Virus record (IMG/VR): IMGVR_UViG_2522572023_000010
Length of the DNA stretch: 57,015 nt
DNA from: a virus
Taxonomy: Duplodnaviria > Heunggongvirae > Uroviricota > Caudoviricetes
Strand: one strand, 5' to 3'
Shown here: positions 13,958 to 57,015 of the stretch, piece after piece
Numbering within the stretch: the stretch's first letter is position 1
Layout of the letters: each line of letters begins with the position of its first letter
The notes under the pieces: generated by a model
What the model saw: the letters and a program-made list of their open reading frames with translations, nothing else
What the model was told of the DNA's origin: nothing
The model's database searches: none
Program-made: the position numbers and the translations under genes

Positions 13958-14194
13958 TGTCTCACCCTTTACTGTGATAACTGTTACGCACAAAAACAAC
14001 AGGCATCCCGGAGGATGCCTGTATCATGACTGAATAAAACTTCTGAATATCTTCACATTTTCACAAACTGACTGTGGCGCTTATAATTTCGCTGCGTTAG
14101 TGTTTTTTTGCCCGAGTAACAAAAACAACTCCTTAACTCTAATCTTTGTCTGTCCCCGCAGCTCCGCGATCACTGCGGGATTTTTTTATTCTTT

Positions 14195-22466: not shown

Positions 22467-22793
22467 TCATAACACCGTCGGACAACGCAAATCGTAAATC
22501 AGCACGGACACAGAAAACGGCAGCTCCCCCTGAATCAGTTCTTCCCGCTCCGCAAGATCCGGATTCCGGTACAGCATCCCGGTCAGTCGCATGGCAGCCC
22601 CCTTCATCCGGGTTAATGCCTCGCCCGGGATCAGTTCACCGTCCTCACGAATCACCTTATCCCGGCTGCCCTGAATGTAGGCCAGCAGCACGGCGGTAGC
22701 CTGACGAACCTTGTCCATCAGCATGTCATCATCCGCGTCATGGTCGACACGCAGATGTGCCTTGATCTCTTCCAGTGTCAGTAATGCCGTCAT
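22467..22793 (-). CDS. head-tail connector (gp6-like) protein
   Basis: 108 aa; synteny. Confidence 0.6.
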   Translation of the reverse strand: MTALLTLEEIKAHLRVDHDADDDMLMDKVRQATAVLLAYIQGSRDKVIREDGELIPGEALTRMKGAAMRLTGMLYRNPDLAEREELIQGELPFSVSVLIYDLRCPTVL

Positions 22794-24013
22794 TTTCCGC
22801 CTCCTGCATCCCGTCCACGTTTGGCAGCCAGGGTCCAGCCTGATGAATGAGCTTCTCCGGGTTTATCACCGGTCATACTGTTGCAGTGCCACAGCGAGCC
22901 CCCCCACGTCACCGTATCACCGGGGTGGTAGGTTTCACCGGCTCTGAACACACCGCGGTAGAGCATCACCGGCAGGGAAAATGTTTTTTCCGTACGCTGG
23001 CCACTGCTCTGCCGGACCACCACAGTGAACGACCGTTCGCCGGTCATGCTGACGTCAATATCGGCCACCCCGTCAACCAGGCATTCCCATCCCCGCATCC
23101 CGTGCGTTTTTTCATACGCCCGCCAGAGTCCGCCCTGGTGTGTGGCATACGTGCCCCGGGGAAAGGATTTTTGATCGTCAATGGCGGGGATTATTTCCAG
23201 TGCCGTGGCATCACGCCCGTCCTGCGGAGCCGGCAGGGCTCTCACCGCATCCAGAACAGCCTTCTGCAGAACATCGGGATCATAGTCACGACCATCACGC
23301 GGAACAGGAATATGGCTTACCGCCTCTTTCACCATCTGTTCAAGCATCGGACGCACATCATCGGGGGTAATACTTTTGCCGTCCGCCGGTACCGGAATAT
23401 TCGCGACCGCATCATTCACCGCCTTCTGCAGTACTTCCGGATCGTAATCACGACCATCACGCGGAACAGGAATATGGCTTACCGCCTCTTTCACCATCTG
23501 CTCAAGCATCGGACGCACATCATCGGGGGTAATACTTTTGCCGTCCGCCGGTACCGGAATATTCGCAACCGCATCATTCACCGCCTGCTGCAGTACATCC
23601 GGATCATAATCACGACCATCACGCGGAACAGGAATATGGCTTACCGCCTCCTTCACCATCTGTTCAAGCATCGGACGCACATCATCGGGGGTAATACTTT
23701 TGCCGTCCGCCGGTACCGGAATATTCGCAACCGCATCATTCACCGCCTGCTGCAGTACATCCGGATCATAATCACGACCATCACGCGGTACCGGAATGGC
23801 CCCCACAGCATCATCCACCATCGCCTGCAGAACCGGACGCACCTCATCCACCGTCACATGCTTCTGTAATACCGCCGACAGGGAAGTCAGTTTCTCTTCA
23901 AACGCTTGTGCCTGCGAGGCCATCTTCCCCTCAAATGTGCGCTGTAAATCCGCCAGCACCGTGGAGAATTCTTCTCCCAGTGCACGAATAATGGACAGTT
24001 CCCGTTCCGTCAT
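22790..24013 (-). CDS. structural protein with tandem 59-aa repeats (function unknown; possible decoration or scaffold-like protein)
   Basis: 407 aa containing about 3.3 copies of PVPRDGRDYDPDVLQQAVNDAVANIPVPADGKSITPDDVRPMLEQMVKEAVSHI; sits between portal and connector. Confidence 0.6.
   Translation of the reverse strand: MTERELSIIRALGEEFSTVLADLQRTFEGKMASQAQAFEEKLTSLSAVLQKHVTVDEVRPVLQAMVDDAVGAIPVPRDGRDYDPDVLQQAVNDAVANIPVPADGKSITPDDVRPMLEQMVKEAVSHIPVPRDGRDYDPDVLQQAVNDAVANIPVPADGKSITPDDVRPMLEQMVKEAVSHIPVPRDGRDYDPEVLQKAVNDAVANIPVPADGKSITPDDVRPMLEQMVKEAVSHIPVPRDGRDYDPDVLQKAVLDAVRALPAPQDGRDATALEIIPAIDDQKSFPRGTYATHQGGLWRAYEKTHGMRGWECLVDGVADIDVSMTGERSFTVVVRQSSGQRTEKTFSLPVMLYRGVFRAGETYHPGDTVTWGGSLWHCNSMTGDKPGEAHSSGWTLAAKRGRDAGGGK
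23270..23800 (-). repeat. coding tandem repeat, about 177-bp unit in about 3.3 copies
   Basis: Near-identical DNA units visible on the plus strand (e.g. 23290-23466, 23467-23643, 23644-23820). Confidence 0.8.
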
Positions 24014-25374
24014 TTTCTCAGTATCCCCCTGAACATCGCTTTCACTGCATCATGCTCTGTTTCACTGATTGCCTTATTACCGTCAGATGCGCCGTCAGGC
24101 AGTTGTGCTGAAACTGTTTTCCCGGCCGACGCGAACGGGTCCTCACGGGCATCACGACGGGACAGCGCCTCCAGACTGTAGTTCTGCTGCTGAAGATACA
24201 GTGCATCACCGCCGGCAAGGGGCGGCAGGTTCTCACGTTTACGGGCCTCATTGGGCGTGAGAAGCGTATTTTTCACCGACTCACCCAGCGTTTTCATGCG
24301 CCGTTCGCTGTCCATTCTCAGCAGCGTGGTGACGTCAAACTCCGTACTCTCGTTTTCCCCCGTTTCCAGCGCCTCATCCAGTAACAGTTCAATGGACTCA
24401 ATCAGCGTCTGCAGGCACTGGGAATAATACTGCTGCTCCAGCGCCTCCACGTTGTCACTGGAAGGCGGGTGGCCAACGCCAATCTTGTAGGCCGGGACAC
24501 GGAACACCGAACAGACAATTTCAGCGGTCATCTTCAGTTGTTCCACCGTCTGCGCATCCACCGGTGAAAACGTCGTGGGGTTGTATTTTGCCCCGTTGCT
24601 CAGAATGGCCGTTTTCCCCGCATTTTCGCCTGTATACCCGCTGTCCCAGTTGCTCTTCAGTTTTTTCGCATTTTCTTCCGTAATACTGCCGGGGATCTCA
24701 ATCACCCCGGACGGCCTGCCGCCATTTCTGAAAAAAGACGTCGAATTTTCCTGAATATGATGCCCCTGCATGGCGGCCAGTCCTGCGGCATACACCGGCG
24801 GCAGCCCCACAAGCGGATGAAAAAAACAGTTAAACCGGTCGTGGATCACCTCCCGGGCAGGCACCGTCACCGCCTCCGTGATCCCGCAGTTCCGGTCCGG
24901 CGTGATGCGGTAGAACACCTCGCCGTCATCCGCCACCAGAGGTTCAACCCGGCTCCAGTCCAGAATACGCAGTTCTTTGATCTGCCCCCGGGAGTTACGG
25001 ATTTTCAGCACCACCGTATTGCCGTGACGCAATTTGGAATTCAGCCACAGTTCAAAAAACTGGATGCGATTCTGCTGCGCATTAGGACGACGACAGAGAC
25101 GGGCAATATCCCCCTGCCGTTTTTCACGGCGGATCCCCTGTGTATCCGTCTGCATCAGGCGCAGCCGCATTTTGGCAATATCCTGGGATATCAGCGAAAT
25201 GCATGAAAACACCGCATGAAAGGAGAGGACACTTTCCGGATCGGCTTTCACACCCTGCTGCCAGGCGCCGGCAAAGGGCTCAACCACCGCCTGAAACAGG
25301 CTGGTCCAGCCCACCTCTTTTACATCACGTCCTGATTTCTGGTTTTTTCGGGTTCGTCGCAAAAAGTTCCACAT
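24010..25374 (-). CDS. portal protein, HK97 family
   Basis: 454 aa with portal signature ...SVFRVPAYKIGVGHPP... Confidence 0.85.
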   Translation of the reverse strand: MWNFLRRTRKNQKSGRDVKEVGWTSLFQAVVEPFAGAWQQGVKADPESVLSFHAVFSCISLISQDIAKMRLRLMQTDTQGIRREKRQGDIARLCRRPNAQQNRIQFFELWLNSKLRHGNTVVLKIRNSRGQIKELRILDWSRVEPLVADDGEVFYRITPDRNCGITEAVTVPAREVIHDRFNCFFHPLVGLPPVYAAGLAAMQGHHIQENSTSFFRNGGRPSGVIEIPGSITEENAKKLKSNWDSGYTGENAGKTAILSNGAKYNPTTFSPVDAQTVEQLKMTAEIVCSVFRVPAYKIGVGHPPSSDNVEALEQQYYSQCLQTLIESIELLLDEALETGENESTEFDVTTLLRMDSERRMKTLGESVKNTLLTPNEARKRENLPPLAGGDALYLQQQNYSLEALSRRDAREDPFASAGKTVSAQLPDGASDGNKAISETEHDAVKAMFRGILRK

Positions 25375-43082: not shown

Positions 43083-43472
43083 TCAGGCGGCTGCACCCGC
43101 CGTTTTCTCGTACTTACTGATAGTGATCTCGACCTTCCCTTCCGGGATAACCGGTCCCCACTCCACCAGCATTCTTTTCACCTGGCTGTCGTCTTCCCAC
43201 ACACCCGCGTGTGTCAGGGCGTCAAACAGTGCCTTGTTATAGTTGTCCAGATCGCGGATCCTGTTATCAGGAGGAAACAACACGATCTCCACTGAAGCAG
43301 GTGCCGACGTTGGTTTTGGCAGACGACGTAACTGCTCAACTATTGCTGCACACGCCGCGCTCTGAAATTTTCGCCCCGCCGCGCTTATCAGGCTCTTACC
43401 AGCAAATGCCCCTTTGTTGGGGTGTCGCCAGTACGTGTTCACGCTGGGCGGGAAAGGCAGGATCAGCTTCAT
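43083..43472 (-). CDS. rusA: Holliday junction resolvase RusA
   Basis: 129 aa; PPSVNTYW...DLDNYNKALFDALTHAGVWEDDSQV matches RusA motifs. Confidence 0.85.
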   Translation of the reverse strand: MKLILPFPPSVNTYWRHPNKGAFAGKSLISAAGRKFQSAACAAIVEQLRRLPKPTSAPASVEIVLFPPDNRIRDLDNYNKALFDALTHAGVWEDDSQVKRMLVEWGPVIPEGKVEITISKYEKTAGAAA

Positions 43473-43795
43473 ACTTTCAGGCCTCTCTCATGTAACCAGT
43501 GAGTTGCACGCAGCCTTGCGTTTTCCTCACCGGCAAGCAGTGAGCGGATAATCCCGACCGCTTCGCTGTCGTCGTCCTTCACTGCGGTATGAAGCGTGAT
43601 CCCCCGGGCCACACCACGCTTTATCGTGATGACGCCTTTTTTCTCCAGTGCGCGAAGATGCTCCACCGCTGCATTCACTGAACGGTATCCCAGCATGGTT
43701 GCCACCTCCTGATTGGTTGGCGGGAAGCCACGTTCTTTCTGATAAGAAATCAGCATATCCAGCACCTGCTGCTGGCATTGAGTTAACGTCGTCAT
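43469..43795 (-). CDS. LexA N-terminal-like DNA-binding protein (no peptidase domain)
   Basis: 108 aa with winged-helix region ...FPPTNQEVATMLGYRSVNAAVEHLRALEKKGVI. Confidence 0.6.
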   Translation of the reverse strand: MTTLTQCQQQVLDMLISYQKERGFPPTNQEVATMLGYRSVNAAVEHLRALEKKGVITIKRGVARGITLHTAVKDDDSEAVGIIRSLLAGEENARLRATHWLHERGLKV

Positions 43796-44478
43796 GCCGC
43801 CATCTCCCTGACCAGTTTTTCTGCCTGCTGGCGAACCTGCGCCAGAAAGGCCTCACCACATGCCTCAAGTTCATCGCGCCCGATGTAGCTGATTGCCGGT
43901 CCCTTCCAGGTCTTGTCGAAAACAGCAATAGCACCAGCGAAGAAAGCGCCTGTCGGTACCTGCTTCTCGTCTTTCGGGATAAACCAGGCAGGCAGTTCAA
44001 AACCAATACGCCCTCGAATAAAAGCAATATGGTCCGCATCTTCCGGCCACCACACTTCGCTGGTGGCAGCTTTGATCAGGAAAACATAGCGCCCCCCCTT
44101 ATCACGCATGGCACTGGCATGTTTCATGATGTAACGCATGCCGGTGATGTATTGCCCCTCATGCTGACTGGCGCGGCTGTATGGGGGATTACCAAAGGCA
44201 GCCCCTTTAAGCTCCGCAAGACGTTCTGACCAGTCATGCGCCAGCGCGTTGTCTTCCGCCGTGTAATACGCAGCACATTTGGCGTTATCACCGTCAGTGA
44301 ACAGATCCAGAACAAACGGGCCAAACAGGGTGTTAATTCCCCAGAAAATGTTGTCCGGCGTGCGCCACTGATCGCCCACTTCCTTCAGTTCATGGGCTGG
44401 TTTGTTCCGCAGTTCCACCAGCGCCTGGCAATATTTATTACTCATTAAGCCCCCACGAAATTCCCTGACAGATACCAC
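43792..44478 (-). CDS. phage N6-adenine DNA methyltransferase (Dam-like)
   Basis: Catalytic motif FGNPPY; 228 aa. Confidence 0.8.
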   Translation of the reverse strand: MVSVREFRGGLMSNKYCQALVELRNKPAHELKEVGDQWRTPDNIFWGINTLFGPFVLDLFTDGDNAKCAAYYTAEDNALAHDWSERLAELKGAAFGNPPYSRASQHEGQYITGMRYIMKHASAMRDKGGRYVFLIKAATSEVWWPEDADHIAFIRGRIGFELPAWFIPKDEKQVPTGAFFAGAIAVFDKTWKGPAISYIGRDELEACGEAFLAQVRQQAEKLVREMAA

Positions 44479-44939
44479 TCTTCACCCGATGCAGCGCGCT
44501 TGCTGCTTTTCCGTAAGCACCGCTCACGACGTGCCAGAAAATTGTTTCGTTCTGGCTGGGAGTGGCTTTCACGGAATGCCGCCATCCACACCGTTGCAGC
44601 ACGACGGTATAAGCCCCTGGACTCCAGTTCTTCAGCCTGGCGGGTCAGGCACAAAATCACACGGGGATCGTTAGTGCCGACATAGAAATTGCGCACAGGT
44701 CTGGTTTCACGAACTGGTTGTGGTTCCGGTTCCTGCGCTCTCTCAGTCAGGCGCGGGAAATGTCTGCGTGTATCTCCTTCACAACGGTGAGCCACACGCC
44801 CACTCTGACGTAACTTGCTTGCTGACTGCAGAACGCGCTGCCGTGAGTAACCTGTAAAAGCATCCGCAATGTCTCCGGAAGTACACCCCGGATGGGCTTC
44901 AATGAATTTCTGAACGTCATTTAACAGACTCATGATCAC
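44445..44939 (-). CDS. PerC-like transcriptional regulator (HTH N-terminus plus PerC-type C-terminus)
   Basis: C-terminal LESRGLYRRAATVWMAAF resembles the PerC/Pch signature GLWRRAAxRW. Confidence 0.5.
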   Translation of the reverse strand: MIMSLLNDVQKFIEAHPGCTSGDIADAFTGYSRQRVLQSASKLRQSGRVAHRCEGDTRRHFPRLTERAQEPEPQPVRETRPVRNFYVGTNDPRVILCLTRQAEELESRGLYRRAATVWMAAFRESHSQPERNNFLARRERCLRKSSKRAASGEEWYLSGNFVGA

Positions 44940-45877
44940 CCCCTGAATCCTGCCGGGATCTGGCTGTAGTCCACGTTGTCGTAACTGGATTTGAAGTACG
45001 GGTCTTCGCGTTTTTCGGTGTACGTGCTGACGGACGGCGATAAGCGCAGGGAAAGCTCATCCCATTTTTCCCGCAGCTTCGACGGGCTGAGCACGTTACG
45101 GCACCAGAACGGATCGCGGCTGACGCGGCTGTACATCTCGCAGATTTGTTTGTGAGTACGACCATCCTGCACACACATAAGGCGAATTTCGTTTGCCCAG
45201 GCTGTCCAGTTCGGTTCTTTGGGACGAACCACCTCGCCGTCACATTCGGCGGCCTGCTCGTACAGGGCGATGATTTTTTTCCAGAGCCACTGTGCGCAGG
45301 TCAAATCATCCTGCGTTCCCCACTGGCGCTTTTTAGGGCTGAATACAACCGCATCAGGATGGCGAGTTAAAAACTCCTGTTCAGCCGTCTGCGTGTCCGG
45401 TTGCGAAGCGTCCGGACGAGAAGTTTTTTTATCTGACGGATCATGTTTTGATTTTACTGACGGATCCCCGCCAGATTCTGACGGGTGAAAACCCGCTTTT
45501 TTGCCAGATTTCGACGCATCAAATTTTGACTGGTCAGATTTTGATGCGTCAGATTTTGACGGGTCAGAATCTGACAGTTGAGAAAATGCCGCTGCCTGAA
45601 GCTTCGCAACGTTAAGCTGATAAACATTCGACGCATTGCGGTTACCCTGGCGACGCGCCTTACGCGTTAACCAGCCTTCTGCTTCCAGCCGTGCGATAGC
45701 CGTTCTGACGGTGCTCATCCCCGCACCAATCTGGCGGGCAATGGTTTCAATTGATGGCCAGCACACACCTTCGTCATTACTGAAATCAGCCAGGCGGGCC
45801 ATAATTGCCACGCTGGATAACTTCATGCCTGACGCAGCGCAACCATCCCATACATAGCCGGTTAATTTAGTGCTCAT
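44936..45877 (-). CDS. replication initiator (O-like, winged-helix N-terminus) with internal iteron origin
   Basis: N-terminal HTH region; central SKSDASKSDQSKFDASKSG repeats encoded by DNA iterons; position after the cro/cII-like genes. Confidence 0.75.
   Translation of the reverse strand: MSTKLTGYVWDGCAASGMKLSSVAIMARLADFSNDEGVCWPSIETIARQIGAGMSTVRTAIARLEAEGWLTRKARRQGNRNASNVYQLNVAKLQAAAFSQLSDSDPSKSDASKSDQSKFDASKSGKKAGFHPSESGGDPSVKSKHDPSDKKTSRPDASQPDTQTAEQEFLTRHPDAVVFSPKKRQWGTQDDLTCAQWLWKKIIALYEQAAECDGEVVRPKEPNWTAWANEIRLMCVQDGRTHKQICEMYSRVSRDPFWCRNVLSPSKLREKWDELSLRLSPSVSTYTEKREDPYFKSSYDNVDYSQIPAGFRG
45425..45590. repeat. iterons (about 7 copies of a 15-bp motif CAGATTTTGACGGGT) inside the replication gene; putative origin
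   Basis: cagattctgacgggt / cagatttcgacgcat / caaattttgactggt / cagattttgatgcgt / cagattttgacgggt / cagaatctgacag at regular spacing. Confidence 0.7.
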
Positions 45878-45886
45878 GACCGACCT

Positions 45887-46225
45887 CTATTTCCCTGAAT
45901 TTACGACGAAACTGTTCGAGCGGGCTGAAGCACTCATGCTCATAGCCTTCGCGGAGGTAGATAACCCGTTGTGTTTCCGGTTCCCAACGAATGACTCTGA
46001 CGGGCACTCCGTAGTGATCTTTGAACCAGCGGTTAACTTGTTGCAAAGGACTGTCTCCTTCTGCCGGTTGAAATCACCCACAGCCCACTCTGCAAAGCTG
46101 TGGGTTACAATTTCCCTGTCACCTGGTACATTCACCGCATAGCAATACTCCACCTTCGCTTTTCCACCCGGTACAGGAAGCGCAATCAGTTGCGAGCGAC
46201 GGTAGTGTGTTGTTAAACTGTTCAT
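45887..46225 (-). CDS. hypothetical protein (112 aa), translationally coupled to the upstream gene
   Basis: GGAG ribosome-binding site; ATGA start/stop overlap with the preceding gene. Confidence 0.45.
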
Positions 46226-46806
46226 GCGTTAGTTTCTCCACAACCAGAAGCAATCGACGCCACGACGCCCGGAGCTGCACACTCGCGGGCGTTACTCTTT
46301 TCCGGCGCACAAAAAACACGAAATAACAGTGTTAAATGCTCCTGCCACTTCGCCATTACTTGGTAGCTGTTCTCTTCGATTTGCTCACGCTCAGCCTGGT
46401 CAATAACTCCATCAGCAGTTGCCTTGCGTAAGTACTGGGAATGCTTGCCAATCCATTCTATTGACTCCATCAGCCGCTGATTAATGTCACCATTGTCAAT
46501 GTCATCAATGTCCACCAGCGGCACAAACACCCCATTACTACGACGCGCTATCGCATCCGTTACATGCCTGGTACCACTGGCATCCTGTAAAACCATGGCC
46601 CACTCAAGTGGAAAAATTTGATCCCCACCGCTACGCAGTCTGTTATGCAATTGATCTTTCGCTGGGGTGATATCATCAGATTTATACAAACCAAGAATTT
46701 CCGCTGCTTCCTCATAGCCATGAGGTAAATCAGCAATCGTTCTTCGTATTGCTGCCACCAGCCATGCTGGTTGCTTATCAACTTTCCATTCAGGTTCTTT
46801 ACCCAC
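46222..46806 (-). CDS. hypothetical early regulator in the cII position (194 aa)
   Basis: ORF immediately downstream of the cro-like gene; no motif recognised. Confidence 0.5.
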
Positions 46807-46834
46807 GGTTCATTCCTCGTTTCTGTGGTTACGT

Positions 46835-47098
46835 TTACGCAGTTGAACCGCTAACTTTTGAATAGCACTCAGGTAATCCATCATTTGGATTGGGGTAAAT
46901 ATCAGGACGCAGTTCATGAGGGGTCACGGACCAGTTTCCCAACTCACAAAGTTGTAAAACCCGTTCTGACGGGACTTGATTGTTAATTACCCAATTGGCG
47001 ACGGATTGAGTGGACTTAAAACCAAAGCGACGGGCTACTTCAGATAAAGACTTTCCCGCAGCCTTTACTGCTTTCTCTGTGTAGTTTTGAGATGACAT
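46835..47098 (-). CDS. cro: Cro-like (YdaS-type) helix-turn-helix regulator
   Basis: 87 aa; HTH LSEVARRFGFKSTQSVANWV; divergent from the repressor gene; GAGGAGAAAGG ribosome-binding site. Confidence 0.75.
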   Translation of the reverse strand: MSSQNYTEKAVKAAGKSLSEVARRFGFKSTQSVANWVINNQVPSERVLQLCELGNWSVTPHELRPDIYPNPNDGLPECYSKVSGSTA

Positions 47099-47104
47099 AC
47101 CTTT

Positions 47105-47165
47105 CTCCTCTGAAATTCAGAGGGATGATGCTACTTAAAATAGCAAATTGCAACTACTTAAAATA
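47105..47165. promoter_or_regulatory. right operator/promoter region (OR-like) between cro and cI
   Basis: Perfect 17-bp palindrome CCTCTGAAATTCAGAGG (47107-47123) and two copies of GCTACTTAAAATAGC-like near-palindromes (47131-47145, 47151-47165). Confidence 0.6.
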
Positions 47166-47909
47166 GAAATGACTAGCGCGTGTGATGTGAGTAATCTTCT
47201 ACCTATGGTAGAAGAACAGAAGTATCCAGATTTCGCCAAGAGACTAAACGAATTGATGACAATCAAAGGAATCTCTGTCACTCAACTCAAAAGTCTTGTG
47301 GGCGTTACATATGAAATGGCTCGTCGATACACAATCGGCGCAGCGAAGCCACGTGTCTCTGTCATGAGTAAACTTGCGTTGGCTCTTGGAGTATCAGCTT
47401 CATATCTAGAATATGGTGTTGGAGATAGAGAGGAATGTAAGGAAATGGCAAGCATCCCCAATCCAACAAAGCCCGATGTATACAGGATAGAAGTTTTGGA
47501 TCTTAGCGTTAGCGCAGGACCTGGGACCTATATGCTTTCAGACTATGTTGATGTGCTCTACGCCATTGAGTTCACAACTGAACATGCCCGTTCTCTTTTC
47601 GGAAACCGTTCTCAGAATGATATAAAAGTTATGACGGTAAATGGAGATAGTATGTCCCCAACTCTTGTTTCCGGGGATCGATTGTTTGTCGACATTTCCG
47701 TTCGCCACTTCCAGACTGATGGAGTTTACTCTTTCGTTTACGGTAAGACTTTCCATGTTAAACGTCTACAAATGCAAGGCAACAAACTAGCTGTTCTTTC
47801 GGATAACCCCGCCTATGAGAAATGGTACATTGATGAGAAGTCGCAAGATCAGCTTTATGTTATGGGTAAGGCACTGATTCATGAGTCGATTAAATATAAT
47901 CGACTTTAA
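47148..47909 (+). CDS. cI: CI-like repressor with S24 (LexA-type) autopeptidase domain
   Basis: N-terminal HTH (MTIKGISVTQLKSLVGVTYEMARRY), C-terminal S24 motifs including GDSMSPT (catalytic Ser) and a downstream Lys; exact start uncertain (ATG overlaps an operator). Confidence 0.85.
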   Translation: MQLLKIEMTSACDVSNLLPMVEEQKYPDFAKRLNELMTIKGISVTQLKSLVGVTYEMARRYTIGAAKPRVSVMSKLALALGVSASYLEYGVGDREECKEMASIPNPTKPDVYRIEVLDLSVSAGPGTYMLSDYVDVLYAIEFTTEHARSLFGNRSQNDIKVMTVNGDSMSPTLVSGDRLFVDISVRHFQTDGVYSFVYGKTFHVKRLQMQGNKLAVLSDNPAYEKWYIDEKSQDQLYVMGKALIHESIKYNRL

Positions 47910-48142
47910 TTAGGCATCTAGCAATCGTTAAAGCAAACGAGCACAGATGATAAAAGATAAGGATAGAAAATCTTTATACAAATTTTATTTGGCACATTGG
48001 TCCATAAAAATGGATTAACACTGAGCTGTTACCCTAAGTAAGAAAAGATAAAGACCATATGTTATCTTTGGGTGCGTTACTAACACAAAAAAACCAAAAT
48101 AAAACATAAATAATAGACAATTCTATACAACAGGATACGATA

Positions 48143-49228
48143 ATGATTAATGAACGTACTGAAGCGACAGATGGGGTAGCAGATATGATTTCCACCAATA
48201 CAAAATATTTAGTATGGAACAACAAAGGTGGTGTAGGAAAAACTTTTCTTACATATAATCTTGCCGTTGAGTTTGCTATATCTCATCCGGATCAAGATGT
48301 TGTGGTTATTGACTCATGCCCTCAATCAAACGTTTCAGAAATTATTCTTGGTGGCAATGGTACCGGGGAAGAAAATCTAAATAAATTGCGAGACAGAAAT
48401 GTTACAATCGCAGGTTATATCAAGGAGCGTTTTAGCAAATCTCCTTTGTCTCGTTTAGGAAATGAATCTTCTTACTTTGTACGAGCCCATGATGTTAATG
48501 CAAAAATGCCAGAGAACTTATATATTCTTCCTGGTGATGTCGATCTTGATATCTGTTCACGCTTAATATCTCACATTGGCTCATCCCCAGTAAAAGAAGC
48601 ATGGAAGAAAAGCCGATCTTTGCTGGTAGATCTAATAGCATCTTTTGAAGCCGATAAAAACATTTCTGACAGAGCAAAAACATTTTTTATTGATTGTAAT
48701 CCAAGTTTTGCCAGCTACACAGAATTGGGAGTAGTCGCGGCAAATAGAATAATTATCCCTTGCACTGCCGATGCTGCATCAATTCGCGGAATAAAAAACC
48801 TTGTTAAACTTATTTATGGAGTGTCTATTGACAAGTCAGAACAAGATGAAATGTTCTTAGATTTCAACAAAGAAGCAAAGCAAAACCTTATCGAACTACC
48901 TGAACTACACCTTTTCGTACAAAACCGCTCAAGAACTAATGAAAGTGATGCAGCAAAAGCATTCAAATCACATGCAGAAGAGATCAAAAGAATCACGGAT
49001 GACCTGTTAAATACACATCCTCATCTGTTCACAAATGTGGCTACTTTCGAGAGAGTTCAAAATGTCAAAGATGGTAATACTCTTGCAGCAATAATAAACC
49101 ATGAGGGATGCCCTTTAAGTAGGCTGCAGCATAAGAGTTACACTATCTATGGTATGGCGACCCAAGCTAATAGAGCACAAATTGAAGCACTAGAATCTGA
49201 TGTTTCAACAGTAGTCAAGTGTCTGTAA
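48143..49228 (+). CDS. ParA/MinD-family ATPase (361 aa), lone gene in the rexAB position; candidate exclusion or defence gene
   Basis: Deviant Walker A KGGVGKT, Walker B-like FFIDCNPSF; AT-rich coding sequence; followed by an intrinsic terminator. Confidence 0.75.
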   Translation: MINERTEATDGVADMISTNTKYLVWNNKGGVGKTFLTYNLAVEFAISHPDQDVVVIDSCPQSNVSEIILGGNGTGEENLNKLRDRNVTIAGYIKERFSKSPLSRLGNESSYFVRAHDVNAKMPENLYILPGDVDLDICSRLISHIGSSPVKEAWKKSRSLLVDLIASFEADKNISDRAKTFFIDCNPSFASYTELGVVAANRIIIPCTADAASIRGIKNLVKLIYGVSIDKSEQDEMFLDFNKEAKQNLIELPELHLFVQNRSRTNESDAAKAFKSHAEEIKRITDDLLNTHPHLFTNVATFERVQNVKDGNTLAAIINHEGCPLSRLQHKSYTIYGMATQANRAQIEALESDVSTVVKCL

Positions 49229-49263
49229 TACAATAACCATGATTTAGAACGAACATAATTCTC

Positions 49264-49288
49264 GCCCGACCAACCGGTCGGGTTTTAT
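49264..49288 (+). terminator. intrinsic terminator after the ParA-like gene
   Basis: CCCGACC-aacc-GGTCGGG followed by TTTTAT. Confidence 0.65.
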
Positions 49289-49525
49289 ACTCGTAGCCTG
49301 CTTAATAACACTGTTCCTGACCCGTTGTATCCATAGTTCCCACTATTTTCCCCCAAATTATTACTATCTAATTAACCTAATAATTAAACCAAAACAAAAG
49401 ACACTCGATATTTTCTATACGTAACTACGCCACATCACCCCATCTGTGAAAAACCTTTTAATTCATAACGTTATATAGAAAACTAAAAATTAAATACACA
49501 CTTCTACTTTTTGTTGTTGATTTTT

Positions 49526-49572
49526 GCTACTTTTAGTAGCATCATTATCTGAACAAACAACAGACTGTTGTT
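49526..49572. promoter_or_regulatory. left operator (OL-like) palindromes
   Basis: GCTACTTTTAGTAGC (49526-49540) shares the GCTACT half-site with the OR repeats; perfect 17-bp palindrome AACAACAGACTGTTGTT (49556-49572). Confidence 0.5.
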
Positions 49573-50160
49573 AACGAAAGGTTGGTTGTAACACGGCGTA
49601 TGGCACATGCGTCGTTAGCGGTCTGGGGACGTTAAAGGGGACAATCCACTCCTTGCTCGGGCAAACAAACCAGGTAGCCGGAATGTGCAAGTCAATGAGG
49701 ATGCTGATAAGACGCCTAACCAGCGTGGCGATTCGGTTTGACGCCTGGGAAGAGACCAGGGTGCAACGATGAGGGCATTTATGGAACCGCGACAAAGTGT
49801 GGTGCCGTAACTGGCTAAGTGCTCTCAGCGTTGTGGTGAATGCGCAGGCTGATGCGCGAAAGACATTGCAGCTATTGCGGAAAAGAGCTGTTCGGCGGGG
49901 CAATTAAACGCCCGTGAGAGTCTGAAATAACCGCAAGCCGGAGATCAGCACCGGTCACCACAACAGCCACTGCTTTGGCGGTACCAGTTTGTACACTTGC
50001 TTCCGGCTGGTACCGCTCTTTTTACAAAACAGAGAAGAGCATCACCGGACGACGGGCTCATAACCCAATCCACCCGGGCGGCTGCCACCGCAGGTGCTCT
50101 TCTCTGTTTTGTGGAGAAACCAACCGACCTTGCAGGGTCGATATGATGAGGAGCAGCAAA

Positions 50161-50523
50161 ATGGCTAGCGAACGCAGTACTGATGTGCAGGCATTTATCG
50201 GGGAGCTGGACGGCGGCGTATTTGAAACCAAAATCGGCGCTGTTCTCAGTGAAGTCGCTTCAGGTGTGATGAACACGAAAACCAAAGGGAAGGTCTCGCT
50301 CAACCTGGAAATCGAACCGTTTGATGAGAACCGTGTGAAAATAAAACACAAACTCTCATATGTTCGTCCGACTAACCGCGGGAAAATTTCCGAAGAAGAC
50401 ACCACCGAAACGCCGATGTATGTCAATCGCGGTGGTCGCCTGACTATTCTGCAGGAAGACCAGGGACAATTACTGACTCTTGCCGGTGAACCTGACGGAA
50501 AACTCCGCGCAGCAGGTCATTAA
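50161..50523 (+). CDS. YfdP-like early protein (CPS-53-type)
   Basis: 120 aa; GAGGAG ribosome-binding site before ATG 50161; first gene of the rightward early operon. Confidence 0.55.
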   Translation: MASERSTDVQAFIGELDGGVFETKIGAVLSEVASGVMNTKTKGKVSLNLEIEPFDENRVKIKHKLSYVRPTNRGKISEEDTTETPMYVNRGGRLTILQEDQGQLLTLAGEPDGKLRAAGH

Positions 50524-50588
50524 TATCGTTCTTAATTAACTGATTATTTATCTCATCACTGAATATCCTTATATAGTGAGGACTTATT

Positions 50589-51413
50589 ATGTCTCAGAAC
50601 TTAGACGCAACCGCAATTAATCAAATCCATGCCCTTATTTCTGCTCAGGGTGTTAATGAAATTATTAGTAAGATTGGTGCCGATGCTGTGGCATTGCCTG
50701 AGAATTTCCGCATTCATGATCTGGAAAAATTTAATTTAAATCGCTTCCGTTTCCGTGGTGCGCTTTCCACTGCCAGCATCGATGACTTTACCCGTTATTC
50801 TAAAGATCTTGCAGATGAAGGCACCCGCTGCTTTATCGATGCCGATAATATGCGTGCCGTCAGTGTGCTTAACCTGGGTACTATTGATGAACCAGGTCAC
50901 GCAGATAACACCGCCACTCTCAAACTGAAAAAGACAGCACCGTTCTCTGCTCTGTTGTCTGTTAATGGCGAGCGTAACTCCCAAAAGTCACTGGCAGAAT
51001 GGATTGAAGACTGGGCCGACTACCTTGTGGGCTTTGATGCTAATGGTGACGCCATTCAGGCAACCAAAGCGGCTGCGGCGATCCGTAAAATCACAATTGA
51101 AGCGAACCAGACCGCTGATTTTGAAGACAATGACTTCAGCGGCAAACGCTCCCTGATGGAGTCTGTCGAAGCGAAGACCAAAGACATTATGCCAGTGGCA
51201 TTTGAATTTAAATGCGTTCCGTTTGAAGGCCTGAAAGAACGTCCGTTTAAATTACGCCTCAGCATTATCACTGGCGATCGTCCTGTACTGGTTCTGCGCA
51301 TTATTCAGCTGGAAGCGGTGCAGGAAGAAATGGCTAACGAATTTCGTGATCTGCTTGTTGAGAAATTTAAAGACAGCAAAGTAGAAACCTTTATTGGTAC
51401 TTTCACCGCCTGA
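50589..51413 (+). CDS. YfdQ-like protein (DUF2303 family)
   Basis: 274 aa; synteny with the following HD-domain gene. Confidence 0.55.
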
Positions 51414-51540
51414 TTTCATTACTGCAAATGCCCCTGCGGGGGCATTTATGGAAACATAATTAACTCAATAATCGCCGGATGGTGAGGGCTTCCTTTTACC
51501 AGAATTCAGCGCGGTGCAGCGCATATACGTGGAGAACAAA

Positions 51541-52077
51541 ATGTCATTTATTAAAACTTTTTCCGGGAAGCATTTTTATTATGACAAGATAAATAAAGAC
51601 GACATCGTTATTAACGATATCGCGGTTTCCCTTTCAAATATCTGTCGCTTTGCAGGACATCTTTCACACTTCTACAGCGTCGCCCAACATGCGGTGCTTT
51701 GCAGCCAGCTGGTACCGCAGGAATTTGCTTTTGAAGCGTTAATGCATGATGCAACAGAAGCATATTGCCAGGACATCCCCGCACCACTGAAACGCCTTCT
51801 TCCTGACTATAAACGGATGGAAGAAAAAATAGACGCCGTAATCCGTGAGAAATACGGGTTACCCCCGGTTATGAGCACGCCTGTGAAATATGCCGATCTC
51901 ATCATGCTGGCAACCGAACGCCGCGATCTCGGGCTTGATGATGGCTCTTTCTGGCCTGTACTGGAAGGCATCCCGGCAACAGAGATGTTCAACGTGATTC
52001 CACTGGCACCGGGCCATGCCTACGGGATGTTTATGGAACGTTTTAACGAGTTATCGGAGTTACGCAAATGCGCATGA
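51541..52077 (+). CDS. HD-domain phosphohydrolase (YfdR-like)
   Basis: MSFIKTFSGKHFYYDK... with H...HD metal-binding motifs (FAGH, MHDATEAY); GGAG ribosome-binding site. Confidence 0.65.
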   Translation: MSFIKTFSGKHFYYDKINKDDIVINDIAVSLSNICRFAGHLSHFYSVAQHAVLCSQLVPQEFAFEALMHDATEAYCQDIPAPLKRLLPDYKRMEEKIDAVIREKYGLPPVMSTPVKYADLIMLATERRDLGLDDGSFWPVLEGIPATEMFNVIPLAPGHAYGMFMERFNELSELRKCA

Positions 52078-52430
52078 ATGTTTTCGAAATGGAAGGGTTT
52101 CTTCGCGGGAAATGTGTACCGCGAGATCTGAAAGTGAACGAAACAAATGCTGAGTACCTGGTACGTAAATTCGACGCGCTTGAAGCTAAATGTGCGGCAC
52201 TGGAAAACAAAATAATACCAGTGTCAGCTGAACTGCCACCAGCAAATGAAAGTGTTCTGTTATTTGATGCTAATGGAGAAGGCTGGCTGATTGGCTGGCG
52301 TTCTCTCTGGTACACCTGGGGACAAAAAGAAACCGGAGAATGGCAGTGGATATTTCAGGTCGGGGACCTTGAAAACGTCAATATCACTCACTGGGCAGTA
52401 ATGCCGAAAGCACCGGAGAATAAGAAATGA
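52068..52430 (+). CDS. DUF551-type protein (YfdS-like)
   Basis: 120 aa ending ...NITHWAVMPKAPE. Confidence 0.5.
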   Translation: MRMNVFEMEGFLRGKCVPRDLKVNETNAEYLVRKFDALEAKCAALENKIIPVSAELPPANESVLLFDANGEGWLIGWRSLWYTWGQKETGEWQWIFQVGDLENVNITHWAVMPKAPENKK

Positions 52431-52630
52431 GCGTGATAAAAACTCATACAGGAATTGTTATCACCCGAGACGGTCCGCAGGTAAAAAAACTGCACCAGAC
52501 AAAGCGGATGTGGGTCGTCGGAAAAAACGAGTTTTACCACAAAGAAACCGGACGCCGCCATTTTGCAGAAAATACGCGCCGCCGACTGCTGTTAGACACC
52601 ATCAAGCCTATCGAGGTGAAGCATGTTTAA
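52427..52630 (+). CDS. small hypothetical early protein
   Basis: ATGA stop/start coupling with neighbours. Confidence 0.4.
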   Translation: MSVIKTHTGIVITRDGPQVKKLHQTKRMWVVGKNEFYHKETGRRHFAENTRRRLLLDTIKPIEVKHV

Positions 52631-52862
52631 ACAGAACGAAAAAGCTATCGCTCAAATTGCTGATTATATCCCGCGTGCGTGCCGGGGTATGCAGTTGCAG
52701 GAAGCCAAAGCGCGCCTGGAGAAAAAAATTGCGCTCTATATTGATGACGGCTGTGATGCTGCCGTTCTTAACGCAGCGTTCGCGCCAGCTCTTAACAGTC
52801 ATACGCGGGAGTCTTTTTTTTCGCGCATCGCAGCGCAGATCCGTAAAGGAGGCAACCAGTGA
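52623..52862 (+). CDS. small hypothetical early protein
   Basis: ATGA stop/start coupling with neighbours. Confidence 0.4.
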   Translation: MFKQNEKAIAQIADYIPRACRGMQLQEAKARLEKKIALYIDDGCDAAVLNAAFAPALNSHTRESFFSRIAAQIRKGGNQ

Positions 52863-53410
52863 GCGAGATTAACTATCAGGCTCTGCGACTGGCGGCAGAA
52901 AATGCAACACCAGGCGAATGGTGTGCTGATGACTACCATGGAGTAATTGCCGATGCCGGACTGAACGCCAATTACTACATAGCATCATGCTCAGGACCAG
53001 ATAATCGCGCCAATAAACGATTCATAGCCGCCGCCAATCCTGCCACCGTCTTGGCGCTGCTGGATGAGCTGGAAGCAGCAGAGAAGCGAAACGCTGAATT
53101 ACAAAGCGAGAATGCATACATCCGCAACCGGTACAAAGAACTGGACCTATTAATCGGGAAAAACATTCTGGTCATGCAGACTGCCATTATCGAATGGCAG
53201 GCAACTGGCGACGCTAAGAGCGGACTGGCATGGATTTATAACACACTGTTTGGCCCTGGCGAATTACCGGACGAATCTGAGAAAGATGCTCAGGCCTACT
53301 TTAATCGCAAATATGCACCGATTGACGAAAAGCTTATGGCGCTTCACAAGTGGTTTTGGGAACAAAGTGAAGCAGAGCGCGCCGCAGGCGCTCGCATTAA
53401 AGGAGGGTGA
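52859..53410 (+). CDS. Ead/Ea22-like early protein
   Basis: 183 aa with coiled-coil centre; typical early-left operon position. Confidence 0.5.
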   Translation: MSEINYQALRLAAENATPGEWCADDYHGVIADAGLNANYYIASCSGPDNRANKRFIAAANPATVLALLDELEAAEKRNAELQSENAYIRNRYKELDLLIGKNILVMQTAIIEWQATGDAKSGLAWIYNTLFGPGELPDESEKDAQAYFNRKYAPIDEKLMALHKWFWEQSEAERAAGARIKGG

Positions 53411-53415
53411 GAAAG

Positions 53416-53603
53416 TGAATCGAACAATAATAGTGACAACAGTAATTTCAGTCCCTGCCAATGCTCCGCATCAGGATATTGATGATTTTGTCGAGAGTAA
53501 ATTCGGGCAAGACAAGGATATGAAACCGGATAACTTATGTTATGGAGATGTTACTGAAATAATTAGCCATCATTGGGAGTATGGCTCTCATTACATGAAT
53601 TAA
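53416..53603 (+). CDS. small hypothetical protein (GTG start)
   Basis: GGAGGG ribosome-binding site then GTG; 62 aa. Confidence 0.35.
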
Positions 53604-53693
53604 TTACATCATATCGTTAATTTAATCCTTAACCGGAGGGATTTCTGCACCCTCAGAACATCAGGAGGCAGCCCGAAAGGGCGGTAACAAATA

Positions 53694-54170
53694 ATGCAAG
53701 ACATCAAAGAAAATATCAGGCAACAGCTTTACGGGTTTTATATTGCTTATGATTTGTGGCTGAAGAACGGGGCAAAACCCGGCGGAGTGTTTTCTCAAAA
53801 TTATGGTTTATGCGCCAATCTTTTCGATTATCTCACATTAATTGGTACCCCCTGTGAGGCAGCGCTGGAGCAATTACACGCTGATTTCAGAAGTGCCGGG
53901 CTGAATGAGGCGTTGCCGTTTAACGAGGGTAAAGAGCATTACCATGAAGAAAGAGGGCACAACATGTGCCATATGAATCCGGCACGAGTGGCGTGGGTCA
54001 GGGCGCAGACAGGGCAGCCAGCGCCGGAAGGACTGGTTAAAGCGGTGCGCTTCTATGAACAGGTTAAGCGTGAAAATCCGCCAGTCGAAACCGGAGCATG
54101 GAAAGACGCTGTTGATTGGGTGTTCAAAGAGGCTTGTCAGGCTGTAAACATTCGCATCAAAGGAGAGTGA
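53694..54170 (+). CDS. hypothetical early protein (158 aa)
   Basis: ORF track; coding-like composition. Confidence 0.5.
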   Translation: MQDIKENIRQQLYGFYIAYDLWLKNGAKPGGVFSQNYGLCANLFDYLTLIGTPCEAALEQLHADFRSAGLNEALPFNEGKEHYHEERGHNMCHMNPARVAWVRAQTGQPAPEGLVKAVRFYEQVKRENPPVETGAWKDAVDWVFKEACQAVNIRIKGE

Positions 54171-54363
54171 GATGAACGGACAAATATCAATTATTCGCCC
54201 TGGCGCTTGTGACGAAGACAATAAGGCTGATTATCCGCCTTGCGATGGGTAGAACAATAACTGCTCTCATTACTCCAGAAAATCTCGCATTAGCATTAAC
54301 CGGAAAGTCAGACCTGCCAGTAGAGCTAAAGCTGCGAAATGTTGAGATTAAGGTGAAATAGCT

Positions 54364-54954
54364 ATGACCACTTTTACCAATAGCAAACTAACAGACGAAT
54401 ACGTTTCAAATGCAACGTTGATTCGGCTCATTCTGTGGGCTGACCAGCACAATAGCCATTATGTTGTAGCGGCTCTGCGCGAGCTACAGGAGCGCCGCAA
54501 GGCTGATAGTGCAGAACCTGGAAGCCAAACTTACAAGTTGCCAGTTAATACACCTTGCCAAGATGCGCCAGCCCATATCTGGCTGCAAACGGCTGGAGTA
54601 TGGCCAGAAGATGGCGAGTTAAGCGAATTAACGTGGTGCAGCCACAATCAACACCATGATGACACGCTATATGTTCGAGCTGACCTTGTGAATGGCAACT
54701 ATCCGGCAACTCCGGATGGTTGGATAAGCTGTAGTGAGCGAATGCCTGAAATGGGAGAGCGACAATGCTATGTGTTAGCAGCTGACTTTAAAAACAACTA
54801 CCCACCAAACATCCCCAACACTCAGGTCGGCGTATATGGCGACTGGTTTAATGATGGCAAGCCCACTTGGGATGACGGTGATGGCGAAGACCTGTATCTC
54901 AAAGAGGTAACCCACTGGATGCAGCTACCAGAACCGCCGCAGGAGGTGAAATGA
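54364..54954 (+). CDS. DUF551 domain protein
   Basis: C-terminal VTHWMQLPEPP motif. Confidence 0.55.
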   Translation: MTTFTNSKLTDEYVSNATLIRLILWADQHNSHYVVAALRELQERRKADSAEPGSQTYKLPVNTPCQDAPAHIWLQTAGVWPEDGELSELTWCSHNQHHDDTLYVRADLVNGNYPATPDGWISCSERMPEMGERQCYVLAADFKNNYPPNIPNTQVGVYGDWFNDGKPTWDDGDGEDLYLKEVTHWMQLPEPPQEVK

Positions 54955-55041
54955 TGAATTGGCCTGAAGCATTCACCGCAGTTGGAGTTGCAATAGCGGT
55001 GGCATTTATTCTGTATTCGCTTTTCCGCTGGGGATAAAGGA

Positions 55042-55284
55042 ATGTTCGCTCTGATTCAACGTGGTCAGATATACACGGACAGAGCCGGATACCCTGTGGT
55101 GATTACTCGCAGTACTCAGCACTCAGTGTTCTTTCGACGCATGGACGGGCGCTCCGGACGGGTACGCATTGGTGAGTTCAACAACCTGTTCGAACATATT
55201 GACCAACAGGAGTACCGCAAAATTCTGGCGGGCACTGAGCAGGAAATGCGCCTGAAAAAATTACGCGCAATGCAACGGAGGTGA
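55042..55284 (+). CDS. hypothetical early protein (80 aa)
   Basis: ORF track; GGAA ribosome-binding site. Confidence 0.45.
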   Translation: MFALIQRGQIYTDRAGYPVVITRSTQHSVFFRRMDGRSGRVRIGEFNNLFEHIDQQEYRKILAGTEQEMRLKKLRAMQRR

Positions 55285-55440
55285 TACATGCATACGGCTT
55301 TTGAGTTCTGGGTTCGCAAGACATTCGGCAATCGCTACGACCTGACCCGTGATGTCGACGGCTTCTACTGCCGTGAAGTTGTGAAACGAATGTTTGACGT
55401 GTGGTGCCACTGCCGTGGATGAAAGTTTTATGAGGTTGGC

Positions 55441-55695
55441 ATGCAGACAATCATCTATCAGATAACCCCCAGCAAATGGTGTACGGAGAGAGTCCTTATT
55501 GCATCAACAGGGCTAAAGCCCGGCACCATCGAGCGGGCCAGAAGAAAGTCATGGATGCAGGGAAAAGAATACCGCCATTACGCTGTAGAAGGTGATCCTG
55601 GGCATTACAGTGAATGCCTGTACAACATCGAAGAAATTATGCGATGGATCGAAAACCAGAAACAACCAGGTGCCAAAAATGCAAGTTCCGGTTAA
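55441..55695 (+). CDS. xis: excisionase-like protein
   Basis: 84 aa; IYQITPSKWCTERVLIASTGLKPGTIERARRK resembles E. coli prophage excisionases; directly upstream of the integrase. Confidence 0.7.
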   Translation: MQTIIYQITPSKWCTERVLIASTGLKPGTIERARRKSWMQGKEYRHYAVEGDPGHYSECLYNIEEIMRWIENQKQPGAKNASSG

Positions 55696-55728
55696 CCTGT
55701 TAATGCTCCTGGACGTCTGGGAGGTTTA

Positions 55729-57015
55729 ATGAGTAACGCATCATACCCGACAGGCGTTGAAAACCATGGAGGATCACTCCGTATATGGTTTCACTATAAT
55801 GGCAAACGTGTCAGAGAAAACCTCGGTGTTCCTGACACAGCCAAAAACCGGAAGATCGCTGGTGAACTTCGCACTTCCGTTTGTTTTGCAATCAGAATGG
55901 GGAGTTTCGACTACGCCGCGCAGTTCCCTAATTCCCCTAACCTGAAACACTTTGGTCTGGGAAAAAGAGAGATAACCGTTAAGGCACTTTCGGAAAAATG
56001 GTTGGACCTTAAGAAAATTGAGATTTGTGCGAATGCACTTAACCGTTACCAGTCAGTAATTAAAAACATGTTACCAATGTTAGGTGAAAAAAAACTGGTT
56101 TCATCCATAACAAAAGAGGATTTACTTTTCGTAAGGAGAGATTTGTTGACCGGTTACCAAAAGCTTTCTAATGGAAAGACTTCTTCCATAAAAGGGCGCT
56201 CAGTGGTCACGGTAAACTACTATATGACAACCATAGCTGGAATGTTTCAATTTGCAACAGATAATGGTTATACCTCAGGAAACCCATTTAACGGTCTGGC
56301 TCCCTTAAAAAAGTCCAAGGTAAAACCAGATCCTCTCACCCGTGACGAATTTATTCGTTTTATTGAGGCTTGCCGTCATCAACAAACAAAAAACCTGTGG
56401 ATTCTCGCTGTATACACGGGTATTCGTCACGGGGAGTTGGTATCGCTGGCATGGGAAGATATAGACCTTAAAGCAAGGACTATAACCATCCGTAGAAATT
56501 ATACAAAACTTGGCGAATTCACTCCACCAAAAACCGATGCAGGCACCGGAAGGACAATTCATCTGGTTCAACCAGCTATTGATGCTCTTAAAAGCCAGGC
56601 GGAAATGACCATGCTTGGAAAGCAACATTCTGTAGAGGTGAAGCAGAGGGAATATGGGAGAACTGCTGTGCATAAATGCACTTTTGTTTTTAGTCCTCAG
56701 GTAACAAAACAGCAGCAGTTGTCCGGACCTCACTACAAGGTTGACTCCATCAGGGAGTCATGGACAAGTATCTTAAAACGCGCAGGTCTGAGACACAGAA
56801 AATCGTACCAATCCAGGCATACTTATGCATGCTGGTCACTTGCCGCAGGAGCTAATCCTAGTTTTATCGCAAGCCAGATGGGCCACACAAACGCACAAAT
56901 GGTATTCAATGTTTACGGAGCATGGATGAAAGACAACAATCACGAACAGATAGAACTCCTTAACAAAAGACTATCTGAAAGTGTCCCATGTATGCCCCAT
57001 AAGAAAGCAGGGTAA
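55729..57015 (+). CDS. int: tyrosine recombinase / phage integrase
   Basis: 428 aa; C-terminal catalytic region with R...HxxR...Y (RHTYACWSL...HTNAQMVFNVY); complete ORF ending at the window edge. Confidence 0.9.
   Translation: MSNASYPTGVENHGGSLRIWFHYNGKRVRENLGVPDTAKNRKIAGELRTSVCFAIRMGSFDYAAQFPNSPNLKHFGLGKREITVKALSEKWLDLKKIEICANALNRYQSVIKNMLPMLGEKKLVSSITKEDLLFVRRDLLTGYQKLSNGKTSSIKGRSVVTVNYYMTTIAGMFQFATDNGYTSGNPFNGLAPLKKSKVKPDPLTRDEFIRFIEACRHQQTKNLWILAVYTGIRHGELVSLAWEDIDLKARTITIRRNYTKLGEFTPPKTDAGTGRTIHLVQPAIDALKSQAEMTMLGKQHSVEVKQREYGRTAVHKCTFVFSPQVTKQQQLSGPHYKVDSIRESWTSILKRAGLRHRKSYQSRHTYACWSLAAGANPSFIASQMGHTNAQMVFNVYGAWMKDNNHEQIELLNKRLSESVPCMPHKKAG

Follow-up and report, generated by a model that had tools for sequence, protein, structure and literature searches.

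YfdN of a lambdoid prophage carries a genuine PerC-like segment and is unlikely to be a dedicated activator of the LEE

Does a perC-like gene in an effector-carrying prophage supply a regulator of the type III secretion system (T3SS)? The question is raised by the IMG/VR virus record IMGVR_UViG_2522572023_000010, a stretch of 57,015 nucleotides of Caudoviricetes DNA referred to here as the window, in which a program-made list of open reading frames (ORFs) contains a minus-strand ORF at 44445-44939. The original prediction saw in its product a PerC-like protein and proposed that the prophage may provide, besides T3SS effectors, an activator of ler, the LEE (locus of enterocyte effacement) master regulator. 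We found that the PerC-like segment is genuine and that the gene is yfdN, whereas the step from there to an activator of ler is very unlikely to hold; a part in phage development is our preferred, still tentative explanation.

The gene and the signal in front of it are located as follows.

44445..44933, minus strand: yfdN-type coding sequence, 162 amino acids (aa) plus stop, assigned from the ORF list, RefSeq, identity to K-12 YfdN and phrog_1324.

44939..44944, minus strand: Shine-Dalgarno-like AGGGGG, 5 nucleotides (nt) 5' of the ATG at 44933, read directly from the sequence.

In Escherichia coli O145:H28 strain RM12761, RefSeq names this interval yfdN, describes the product as 'PerC family transcriptional regulator' (WP_072141877.1) and starts the model at the GTG at 44939, which gives 164 aa. 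The ATG at 44933 is the likelier start, because it is preceded by the AGGGGG and most aligned YfdN homologues, down to 25% identity, begin with MSL, MSI or MSM. The AGGGGG falls within the final codons of the upstream initiator gene, whose TGA stop occupies 44936-44938. The product matched phrog_1324 over residues 1-161 (4.6e-78), and the window protein is identical to YfdN of E. coli K-12 (b2357) in 159 of 164 residues (97%). By its sequence, the protein is an ordinary YfdN family member, and the gene was already known and annotated. K-12 YfdN is itself uncharacterised, and the 97% identity supplies a name, not a function. Its gene lies in the cryptic prophage CPS-53, likewise behind an initiator gene (the remnant yfdO) and in front of a methyltransferase gene (the remnant yfdM), and the left-arm genes yfdP/Q/R of CPS-53 also occur in the window's prophage. 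Unlike CPS-53, a remnant with a truncated initiator, the window has an intact module in a largely complete prophage, some genes of which are frameshifted.

To judge the resemblance to PerC and the Pch proteins, we compared YfdN with PerC from plasmid pMAR2 of enteropathogenic E. coli (EPEC) and with PchA, PchD and PchE from O157 strain Sakai. Residues 98-149 matched the Pfam family PerC (PF06069) with 36.1 bits (E = 7.7e-9) at a gathering cut-off of 22.6 bits, and the same family was matched by all 35 aligned YfdN family members at E <= 0.01, down to 23% identity. BLASTP of YfdN returned PchE (4e-10), PchA (1e-7), PerC (1e-6) and PchD (1e-5), with identities of 33-41% across 44-52 residues, and hhalign of the 35-member YfdN profile against the four proteins gave a probability of 98.2% and E = 5.5e-14 over 54 columns. 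Both the profile hit and the alignment on which the claimed resemblance depended were thus obtained, and the sequence comparisons confirm the PerC-like segment of YfdN as genuine, far beyond chance. The motif that had been pointed out, LESRGLYRRAATVWMAAF, corresponds to residues 103-120 counted from the ATG (window 44574-44627, minus strand); it does belong to the C-terminal domain but was wrongly taken for the C-terminus itself, as 42 residues follow.

The resemblance stops halfway through PerC. The Pfam match spans profile positions 5-56 of 90, that is, the first half, and hhalign paired YfdN 98-151 with PerC 6-59 and nothing further. Shared with PerC of EPEC and with PchA/B/C of enterohaemorrhagic E. 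coli (EHEC) is their N-terminal segment A..LE.KG.YRRAA.RW...R...RR..C, at 37-41% identity. For the C-terminal block N..DIK.AV...MG...FR.Y of PerC, PchA, PchD and PchE no counterpart was found in YfdN by Pfam or hhalign, and the alignment is gapped there; PerC and PchA (89 and 104 aa) thus differ from YfdN in having a conserved C-terminal half of their own. Nor does YfdN have the size of the single-domain PerC/Pch proteins (~89-104 aa), as its 162 aa include a winged helix and a linker of ~30 residues. The genetic settings differ too: unlike yfdN, perC is part of the plasmid perABC cluster, and pchA stands as a gene of its own, with the early and Q genes beside it on the other strand. PchE (ECs_1588, prophage Sp7 of O157 Sakai), the best pairwise match with 40% identity over 52 residues, is comparable in that its gene directly follows replication genes of a mobile element, encoding a primase and a single-stranded DNA-binding protein; in contrast to YfdN, it is a 90-aa single domain that covers the full PerC profile, with neither the winged helix nor the YfdN tail. 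When each YfdN domain was searched against all six frames of the window, no second PerC-like or YfdN-like ORF came up, within the limited sensitivity of single-sequence phmmer.

The 35-sequence family alignment was the basis of an AlphaFold2 model (mean predicted local distance difference test score, pLDDT, 85), which divides the protein as follows.

44754..44933, minus strand: N-terminal winged helix, aa 1-60, made up of three helices and a beta-hairpin wing (AlphaFold2 pLDDT 92-97).

44667..44753, minus strand: variable linker, aa 61-89, predicted to be disordered, with length and sequence varying across the family alignment.

44505..44666, minus strand: PerC/ANR-like three-helix domain, aa 90-143, which holds the motif at 44574-44627 (Pfam, hhalign and AlphaFold2).

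44448..44504, minus strand: C-terminal tail, aa 144-162, predicted to be disordered (pLDDT 50-71).

The predicted winged helix consists of helices 3-13, 19-25 and 31-44 and strands 47-52 and 55-60. Foldseek matched it to the winged helices of BlaI/MecI, ArsR/SmtB, MarR and F-93 with root-mean-square deviations of 1.4-2.6 A over ~60 residues (E ~0.02-0.1), and Pfam MarR_2 scored 21.4 bits, below its cut-off of 27. The pLDDT of the linker is 54-58 for residues 61-80 and climbs to 78 for residues 81-90. The three helices of the following domain (90-106, 109-122 and 126-143; pLDDT ~95-97) contain residues that are invariant or nearly so among the 35 family members: A100, L103, R111, A112, A113, R136 and C139. 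In the tail a family motif (W/C)xLxGx(Y/F)xG is conserved, with G157 and G161 present in at least 90% of the 35 members; this motif is not present in PerC/Pch. The succession of winged helix, PerC-like domain and tail is kept across all 35. A sequence search of the PDB with YfdN found no related chain even at E <= 10, and Foldseek against the PDB and BFVD found generic winged helices only, with no informative match for the three-helix domain.

The part of YfdN that is homologous to PerC is also the part that resembles the ANR (AraC negative regulator) proteins. The NCBIfam model ANR (NF033650) aligned to residues 96-142 through model positions 5-51 of 54 (23.6 bits, E = 3.5e-5). The published ANR signature comprises A10, E14, A22, W26, A29, W43 and R47 (PMC4983702), and five of these seven residues are found at the exact spacing in YfdN (A100, E104, A112, W116 and A119), while F132 and R136 lie one position off W43 and R47. 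Like YfdN, the ANR proteins Aar and Rnr have three predicted helices. Unlike YfdN, where the module forms one domain of a longer protein, they are stand-alone proteins of <10 kDa that accompany AraC-family regulators, and they differ from the PerC-type activators in that they repress. ANR/Aar binds both the AraC-type activator AggR and H-NS (PMC4983702, PMC5570504). The annotation of the window's prophage includes no AraC-family gene. As applied to YfdN-type proteins, the label 'PerC family transcriptional regulator' is based on ~55 residues common to PerC/Pch and ANR.

Would such a protein activate the LEE? The original prediction was right about the effector genes of the prophage, which were found at the following positions.

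2314-3549, plus strand: nleA variant, 411 aa, with ~87% nucleotide identity to nleA of O157:H7.

5759-6409: nleG7, by RefSeq annotation.

According to this prediction, YfdN would be a Pch-like activator of LEE1/ler, and the prophage would supply T3SS effectors together with their regulator. The PerC-family homology and the identity of 41% to PchA over 44 residues speak for it, as does the location of the effector genes in an AT-rich end of the prophage (42.5% GC, compared with 50.5% overall). PerC and PchA/B/C are proven activators of LEE1 through H-NS de-silencing, and Pch, which displaces H-NS, acts solely through relief of H-NS/StpA/Hha silencing (PMC4764244), so the module shared with YfdN might do the same. 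Moreover, Uhlich et al., who called yfdN 'the K12 unique PerC homologue', removed it as a precaution from their ler::lacZ reporter strain of K-12 (PMC5931665). What YfdN shares with PerC, PchA, PchD and PchE, however, excludes their C-terminal half, and its architecture is different. According to published work, whether a protein activates the LEE does not follow from its belonging to the PerC family: ler is activated by PchA/B/C alone and not by PchD or PchE (PMC5931665, PMC6265319), and one homologue on a phage-inducible chromosomal island (PICI), EcCIMP1_025, represses LEE1 (PMC11773190). PchD and PchE are full-length homologues, and PchE is the best BLASTP match of YfdN; its overexpression lowers csgD and curli and raises flagellar expression (PMC6265319, PMC7369912). 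EcCIMP1_025, likened to YfdN by description and not by sequence, is also a PerC-family protein encoded beside replication genes of a mobile element and differs in its silencing of LEE1-lux in Citrobacter rodentium (PMC11773190).

The distribution and setting of yfdN also argue against an activator of the LEE. The gene lies in a repressor-controlled early-right operon, whereas pchA is a separate moron. It is kept in K-12, Shigella, Salmonella and Kosakonia, none of which is known to possess a LEE, and the K-12 strain W3110 presumably carries CPS-53 and yfdN. In W3110 without Pch, LEE1 promoter activity is low, and supplying Pch raises it 110-fold (PMC4764244). In the literature we found no direct assay of ler with a YfdN-type protein. 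We consider it very improbable that YfdN is a Pch-like activator of ler: of the original prediction, the PerC-family segment and the effector genes stand, and the step to LEE regulation is unsupported, with the C-terminal half absent and the gene kept in hosts lacking a LEE. The PerC-like yfdN is of minor importance for the window, as a common and annotated part of the lambdoid replication/nin module, and it should not be taken as a sign of LEE regulation by this prophage.

Our preferred explanation, to which we assign a probability of about 0.45, is that YfdN is a conserved delayed-early protein of widespread lambdoid temperate phages of Enterobacteriaceae, whose winged helix and ANR/PerC-type contact module would tune nucleoid or regulator proteins. 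YfdN would be made upon inactivation of the prophage repressor or upon infection. Its winged helix would tether the protein to DNA or target it there, and the PerC/ANR-like module would contact a putative nucleoid-associated or transcription-factor partner, either of the H-NS/StpA/Hha type or of the AraC type; we propose such a partner because Pch relieves H-NS silencing and Aar binds AggR and H-NS. The primary purpose would be phage-centred, namely the tuning of phage or host gene expression during lytic development, and activation of the LEE would not be the dedicated role of YfdN. In favour of this explanation are the identity and wide distribution of the family, the modelled domains with their partial PerC/ANR homology, the conserved place in the operon and the known actions of Pch and the ANR proteins.

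Several points weigh against this explanation. The ANR score of 23.6 bits does not reach the profile cut-off of 32. The fold-search E-values for the winged helix are weak (0.007-0.1), and its DNA-binding role is read from the fold only. No experiments on YfdN-type proteins were found in the literature; apart from the precautionary deletion, yfdN came up only in a screen by overexpression (PMC2853380) and in a predicted interactome (10.1101/2025.05.07.652715). Finally, the constant slot of yfdN behind the initiator gene fits a role in replication equally well.

A bolder proposal, which we regard as quite unlikely, is that YfdN-type proteins are DNA-tethered phage counter-silencers that de-repress AT-rich cargo on SOS induction. 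The winged helix would then put the ANR/PerC-like module on DNA, where it would disturb H-NS/StpA/Hha filaments at the nleA/nleG end of the prophage and possibly at LEE1. If this were true, a latent modulator of xenogeneic silencing, coupled to induction, would be present in about half of all E. coli strains, and a modulation of H-NS-type silencing by YfdN would matter because the gene is so widespread.

A role in replication has to be weighed against the genetic context of yfdN, and the neighbouring features are listed here.

46222-46806, minus strand: cII-like gene of the early-right operon.

44936..45877, minus strand: O-like replication initiator gene, 313 aa, whose stop overlaps the start region of yfdN.

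45502..45584, inside the initiator gene: iteron-like array of 5-6 copies with 15-bp spacing, found in a repeat search (three repeat families).

43792..44445, minus strand: Dam-type N6-adenine methyltransferase gene (Pfam Dam, 1.1e-45; RefSeq start 44445).

On the minus strand the genes follow each other in the order cro-like, cII-like, DUF4222, O-like initiator, yfdN, Dam, a gene for a protein with the LexA DNA-binding domain only, RusA, KilA-N, DUF968/HNH and Q. The original prediction had placed the gene correctly in the replication/nin region, as yfdN lies in the early-right operon between the O-like initiator and Dam genes and shares its transcription with the replication and nin genes. 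Stop and start codons overlap at both ends of yfdN; the ATG of Dam overlaps the yfdN stop in TAATG, as read directly. No promoter or terminator consensus was found between the initiator gene and yfdN. The initiator matched phrog_391, 'replication initiation O-like' (1.3e-134), and Pfam HTH_36, and the array within its gene is presumed from the repeats to be the replication origin of the prophage.

The same gene order occurs around a Shigella relative of YfdN with 64% identity, a Citrobacter relative with 46%, and relatives with 27-30% in Kosakonia, an NCBI assembly and two metagenome contigs. Even at 27-46% YfdN identity, the conserved series reads repressor, cro, cII-like, DUF4222, initiator, YfdN-like, methyltransferase, LexA DNA-binding domain, RusA, KilA-N/ANT, DUF968 and Q. 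The slot of yfdN directly behind the initiator gene, with which it overlaps, was seen in the window, K-12, Shigella, Citrobacter, Kosakonia, mEp460, a Salmonella phage and the distant members, and the initiators in front of it have at least three different architectures.

This constant position would suit a replication accessory occupying the slot of lambda P, either as an adaptor that joins the initiator at the iterons to the helicase or primosome of the host, or as a protein that clears nucleoid proteins from the origin. The C-terminal domain of the initiator is homologous to the matching domain of lambda O (35% identity for initiator residues 131-277), and this domain of lambda O binds P. 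Further, the annotated genes of the prophage include no homologue of P, DnaB or DnaC, and the conserved YfdN tail, disordered in the model, would be reminiscent of a docking peptide. Homology to lambda P is absent, however: hhalign gave a probability of 0.1% with E = 0.61, by which we ruled out that YfdN is a P homologue. In addition, the yfdN slot of a Klebsiella phage record, whose full-length initiator shows 71% identity, is taken by an unrelated 70-aa ORF with Dam behind it, and phages Flotzy and YeP2 have related initiators and no yfdN. Since these initiators do without it, yfdN is not obligatory for the initiator. We regard a replication accessory as unlikely.

We also considered the near-identical initiator tail (REDPYFK.SYDNVDYSQIPAGFRG) as a contact site for YfdN. 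This was ruled out, as the initiators of the Klebsiella phage and Flotzy carry the motif without yfdN: VDYS..P..GFR(G/S) is present with or without a downstream yfdN, and is therefore not evidence of contact with YfdN.

Lambda offers another comparison, as the position of yfdN is that of ren. YfdN might have a Ren-like accessory or exclusion function, with an N-terminal domain related to lambda Ren. Residues 3-67 showed a very weak similarity to phrog_142, 'Ren-like exclusion protein' (E = 0.0035), and hhalign aligned 46 columns with lambda Ren, starting at residue 2 in each protein (E = 0.0027). The hhalign probability was just 11%, though, and weak matches of this kind are common for small winged-helix domains. 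PADLOC gave no defence-family hit for YfdN, and a relationship to Ren would leave the conserved PerC-like domain unexplained. We judge a Ren-like role very improbable, the link to Ren being too weak to build on.

The preferred explanation describes YfdN as a protein of widespread phages, and the distribution was as follows. Of the 5426 complete E. coli genomes, about half (2674) contain yfdN, which also occurs, at 94-99% identity, in the records of Stx2c phages, mEp460, SfV (orf40), SfII and SfIV. ST64B-like phages of Salmonella have a relative at 68% identity, and further relatives occur in Citrobacter and Kosakonia. HMMER, run exhaustively on 1.84 billion representatives, returned just 99 proteins at E <= 1e-3, ~20 of which are full-length two-domain relatives with 25-46% identity. 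The family is narrow because of these small numbers and, as far as shown by the retrieved genomes and phage records (the library of representatives comes without taxonomy), enterobacterial.

The neighbours of yfdN have features of their own. A methyltransferase gene stands right after yfdN in most yfdN loci examined (window 43792-44445, minus strand; L014 4429-6252; L024 4444-5268). The encoded enzymes come from unrelated families: Dam (PF05869), D12-class (PF02086) and a 607-aa protein of phrog_116; the Citrobacter locus L012 is an exception. Downstream of Dam, at window 43469-43795 on the minus strand, a 108-aa protein is encoded that has the LexA DNA-binding domain alone (Pfam 2.9e-19) and no S24 peptidase domain. 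The gene is retained in the same operon of distant relatives, and the protein could be a non-cleavable binder of SOS boxes.

The initiators share a terminal motif, ..(N/G)VDYS(Q/L)(IP/PEN)xGFR(G/S) at the stop, despite different middle and C-terminal domains. It was found in the window (44936-45010, minus strand) and in loci L009, L012, L014, L016, L017, L020 and L021, in initiators of the lambda-O-like type of the window, the 272-aa type of SfV/mEp460, the Phg_2220_C type and that of the Klebsiella phage. The modules with such initiators encode no P, DnaB or DnaC homologue, and the tail may therefore be a peptide to which a host replication factor docks.

The whole window was compared with the chromosome of RM12761 (NZ_CP007133.1 2708900-2765914). 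There were no differences over 44401-57015 and 15 single-nucleotide polymorphisms (SNPs) over 1-44501. All 15 SNPs lie at 11084-15253 in the genes for gpJ, tail assembly and a C40 peptidase, and the other ~53 kb are identical, a pattern that points to a small patch of recombination within the host-range region. At the effector end, the nleA variant is annotated merely as 'hypothetical protein' in RM12761, and a 402-aa hypothetical ORF (454-1662, plus strand) lies just upstream of it. RefSeq marks decayed genes at 3883-7771 and 22790-25374: there is an NleG pseudogene, an IS3 transposase is interrupted by an internal stop, EspS and a portal gene are frameshifted, and another transposase is present as a fragment. 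The prophage may not be fully functional.

The interval 48143-50160 belongs to the early-left arm and lies downstream of the cI-like repressor gene (47205-47909); it contains a gene for a ParA-family ATPase, followed by ~930 bp without an annotated gene, in which ORFs start with TTG or GTG only. The integrase gene (55729-57015, plus strand) ends at the edge of the window, and in NZ_CP007133.1 mlrA starts 21 nt beyond it; the prophage therefore occupies the mlrA (yehV) locus. Prophage insertion at mlrA affects the regulation of csgD and curli (PMC5931665).

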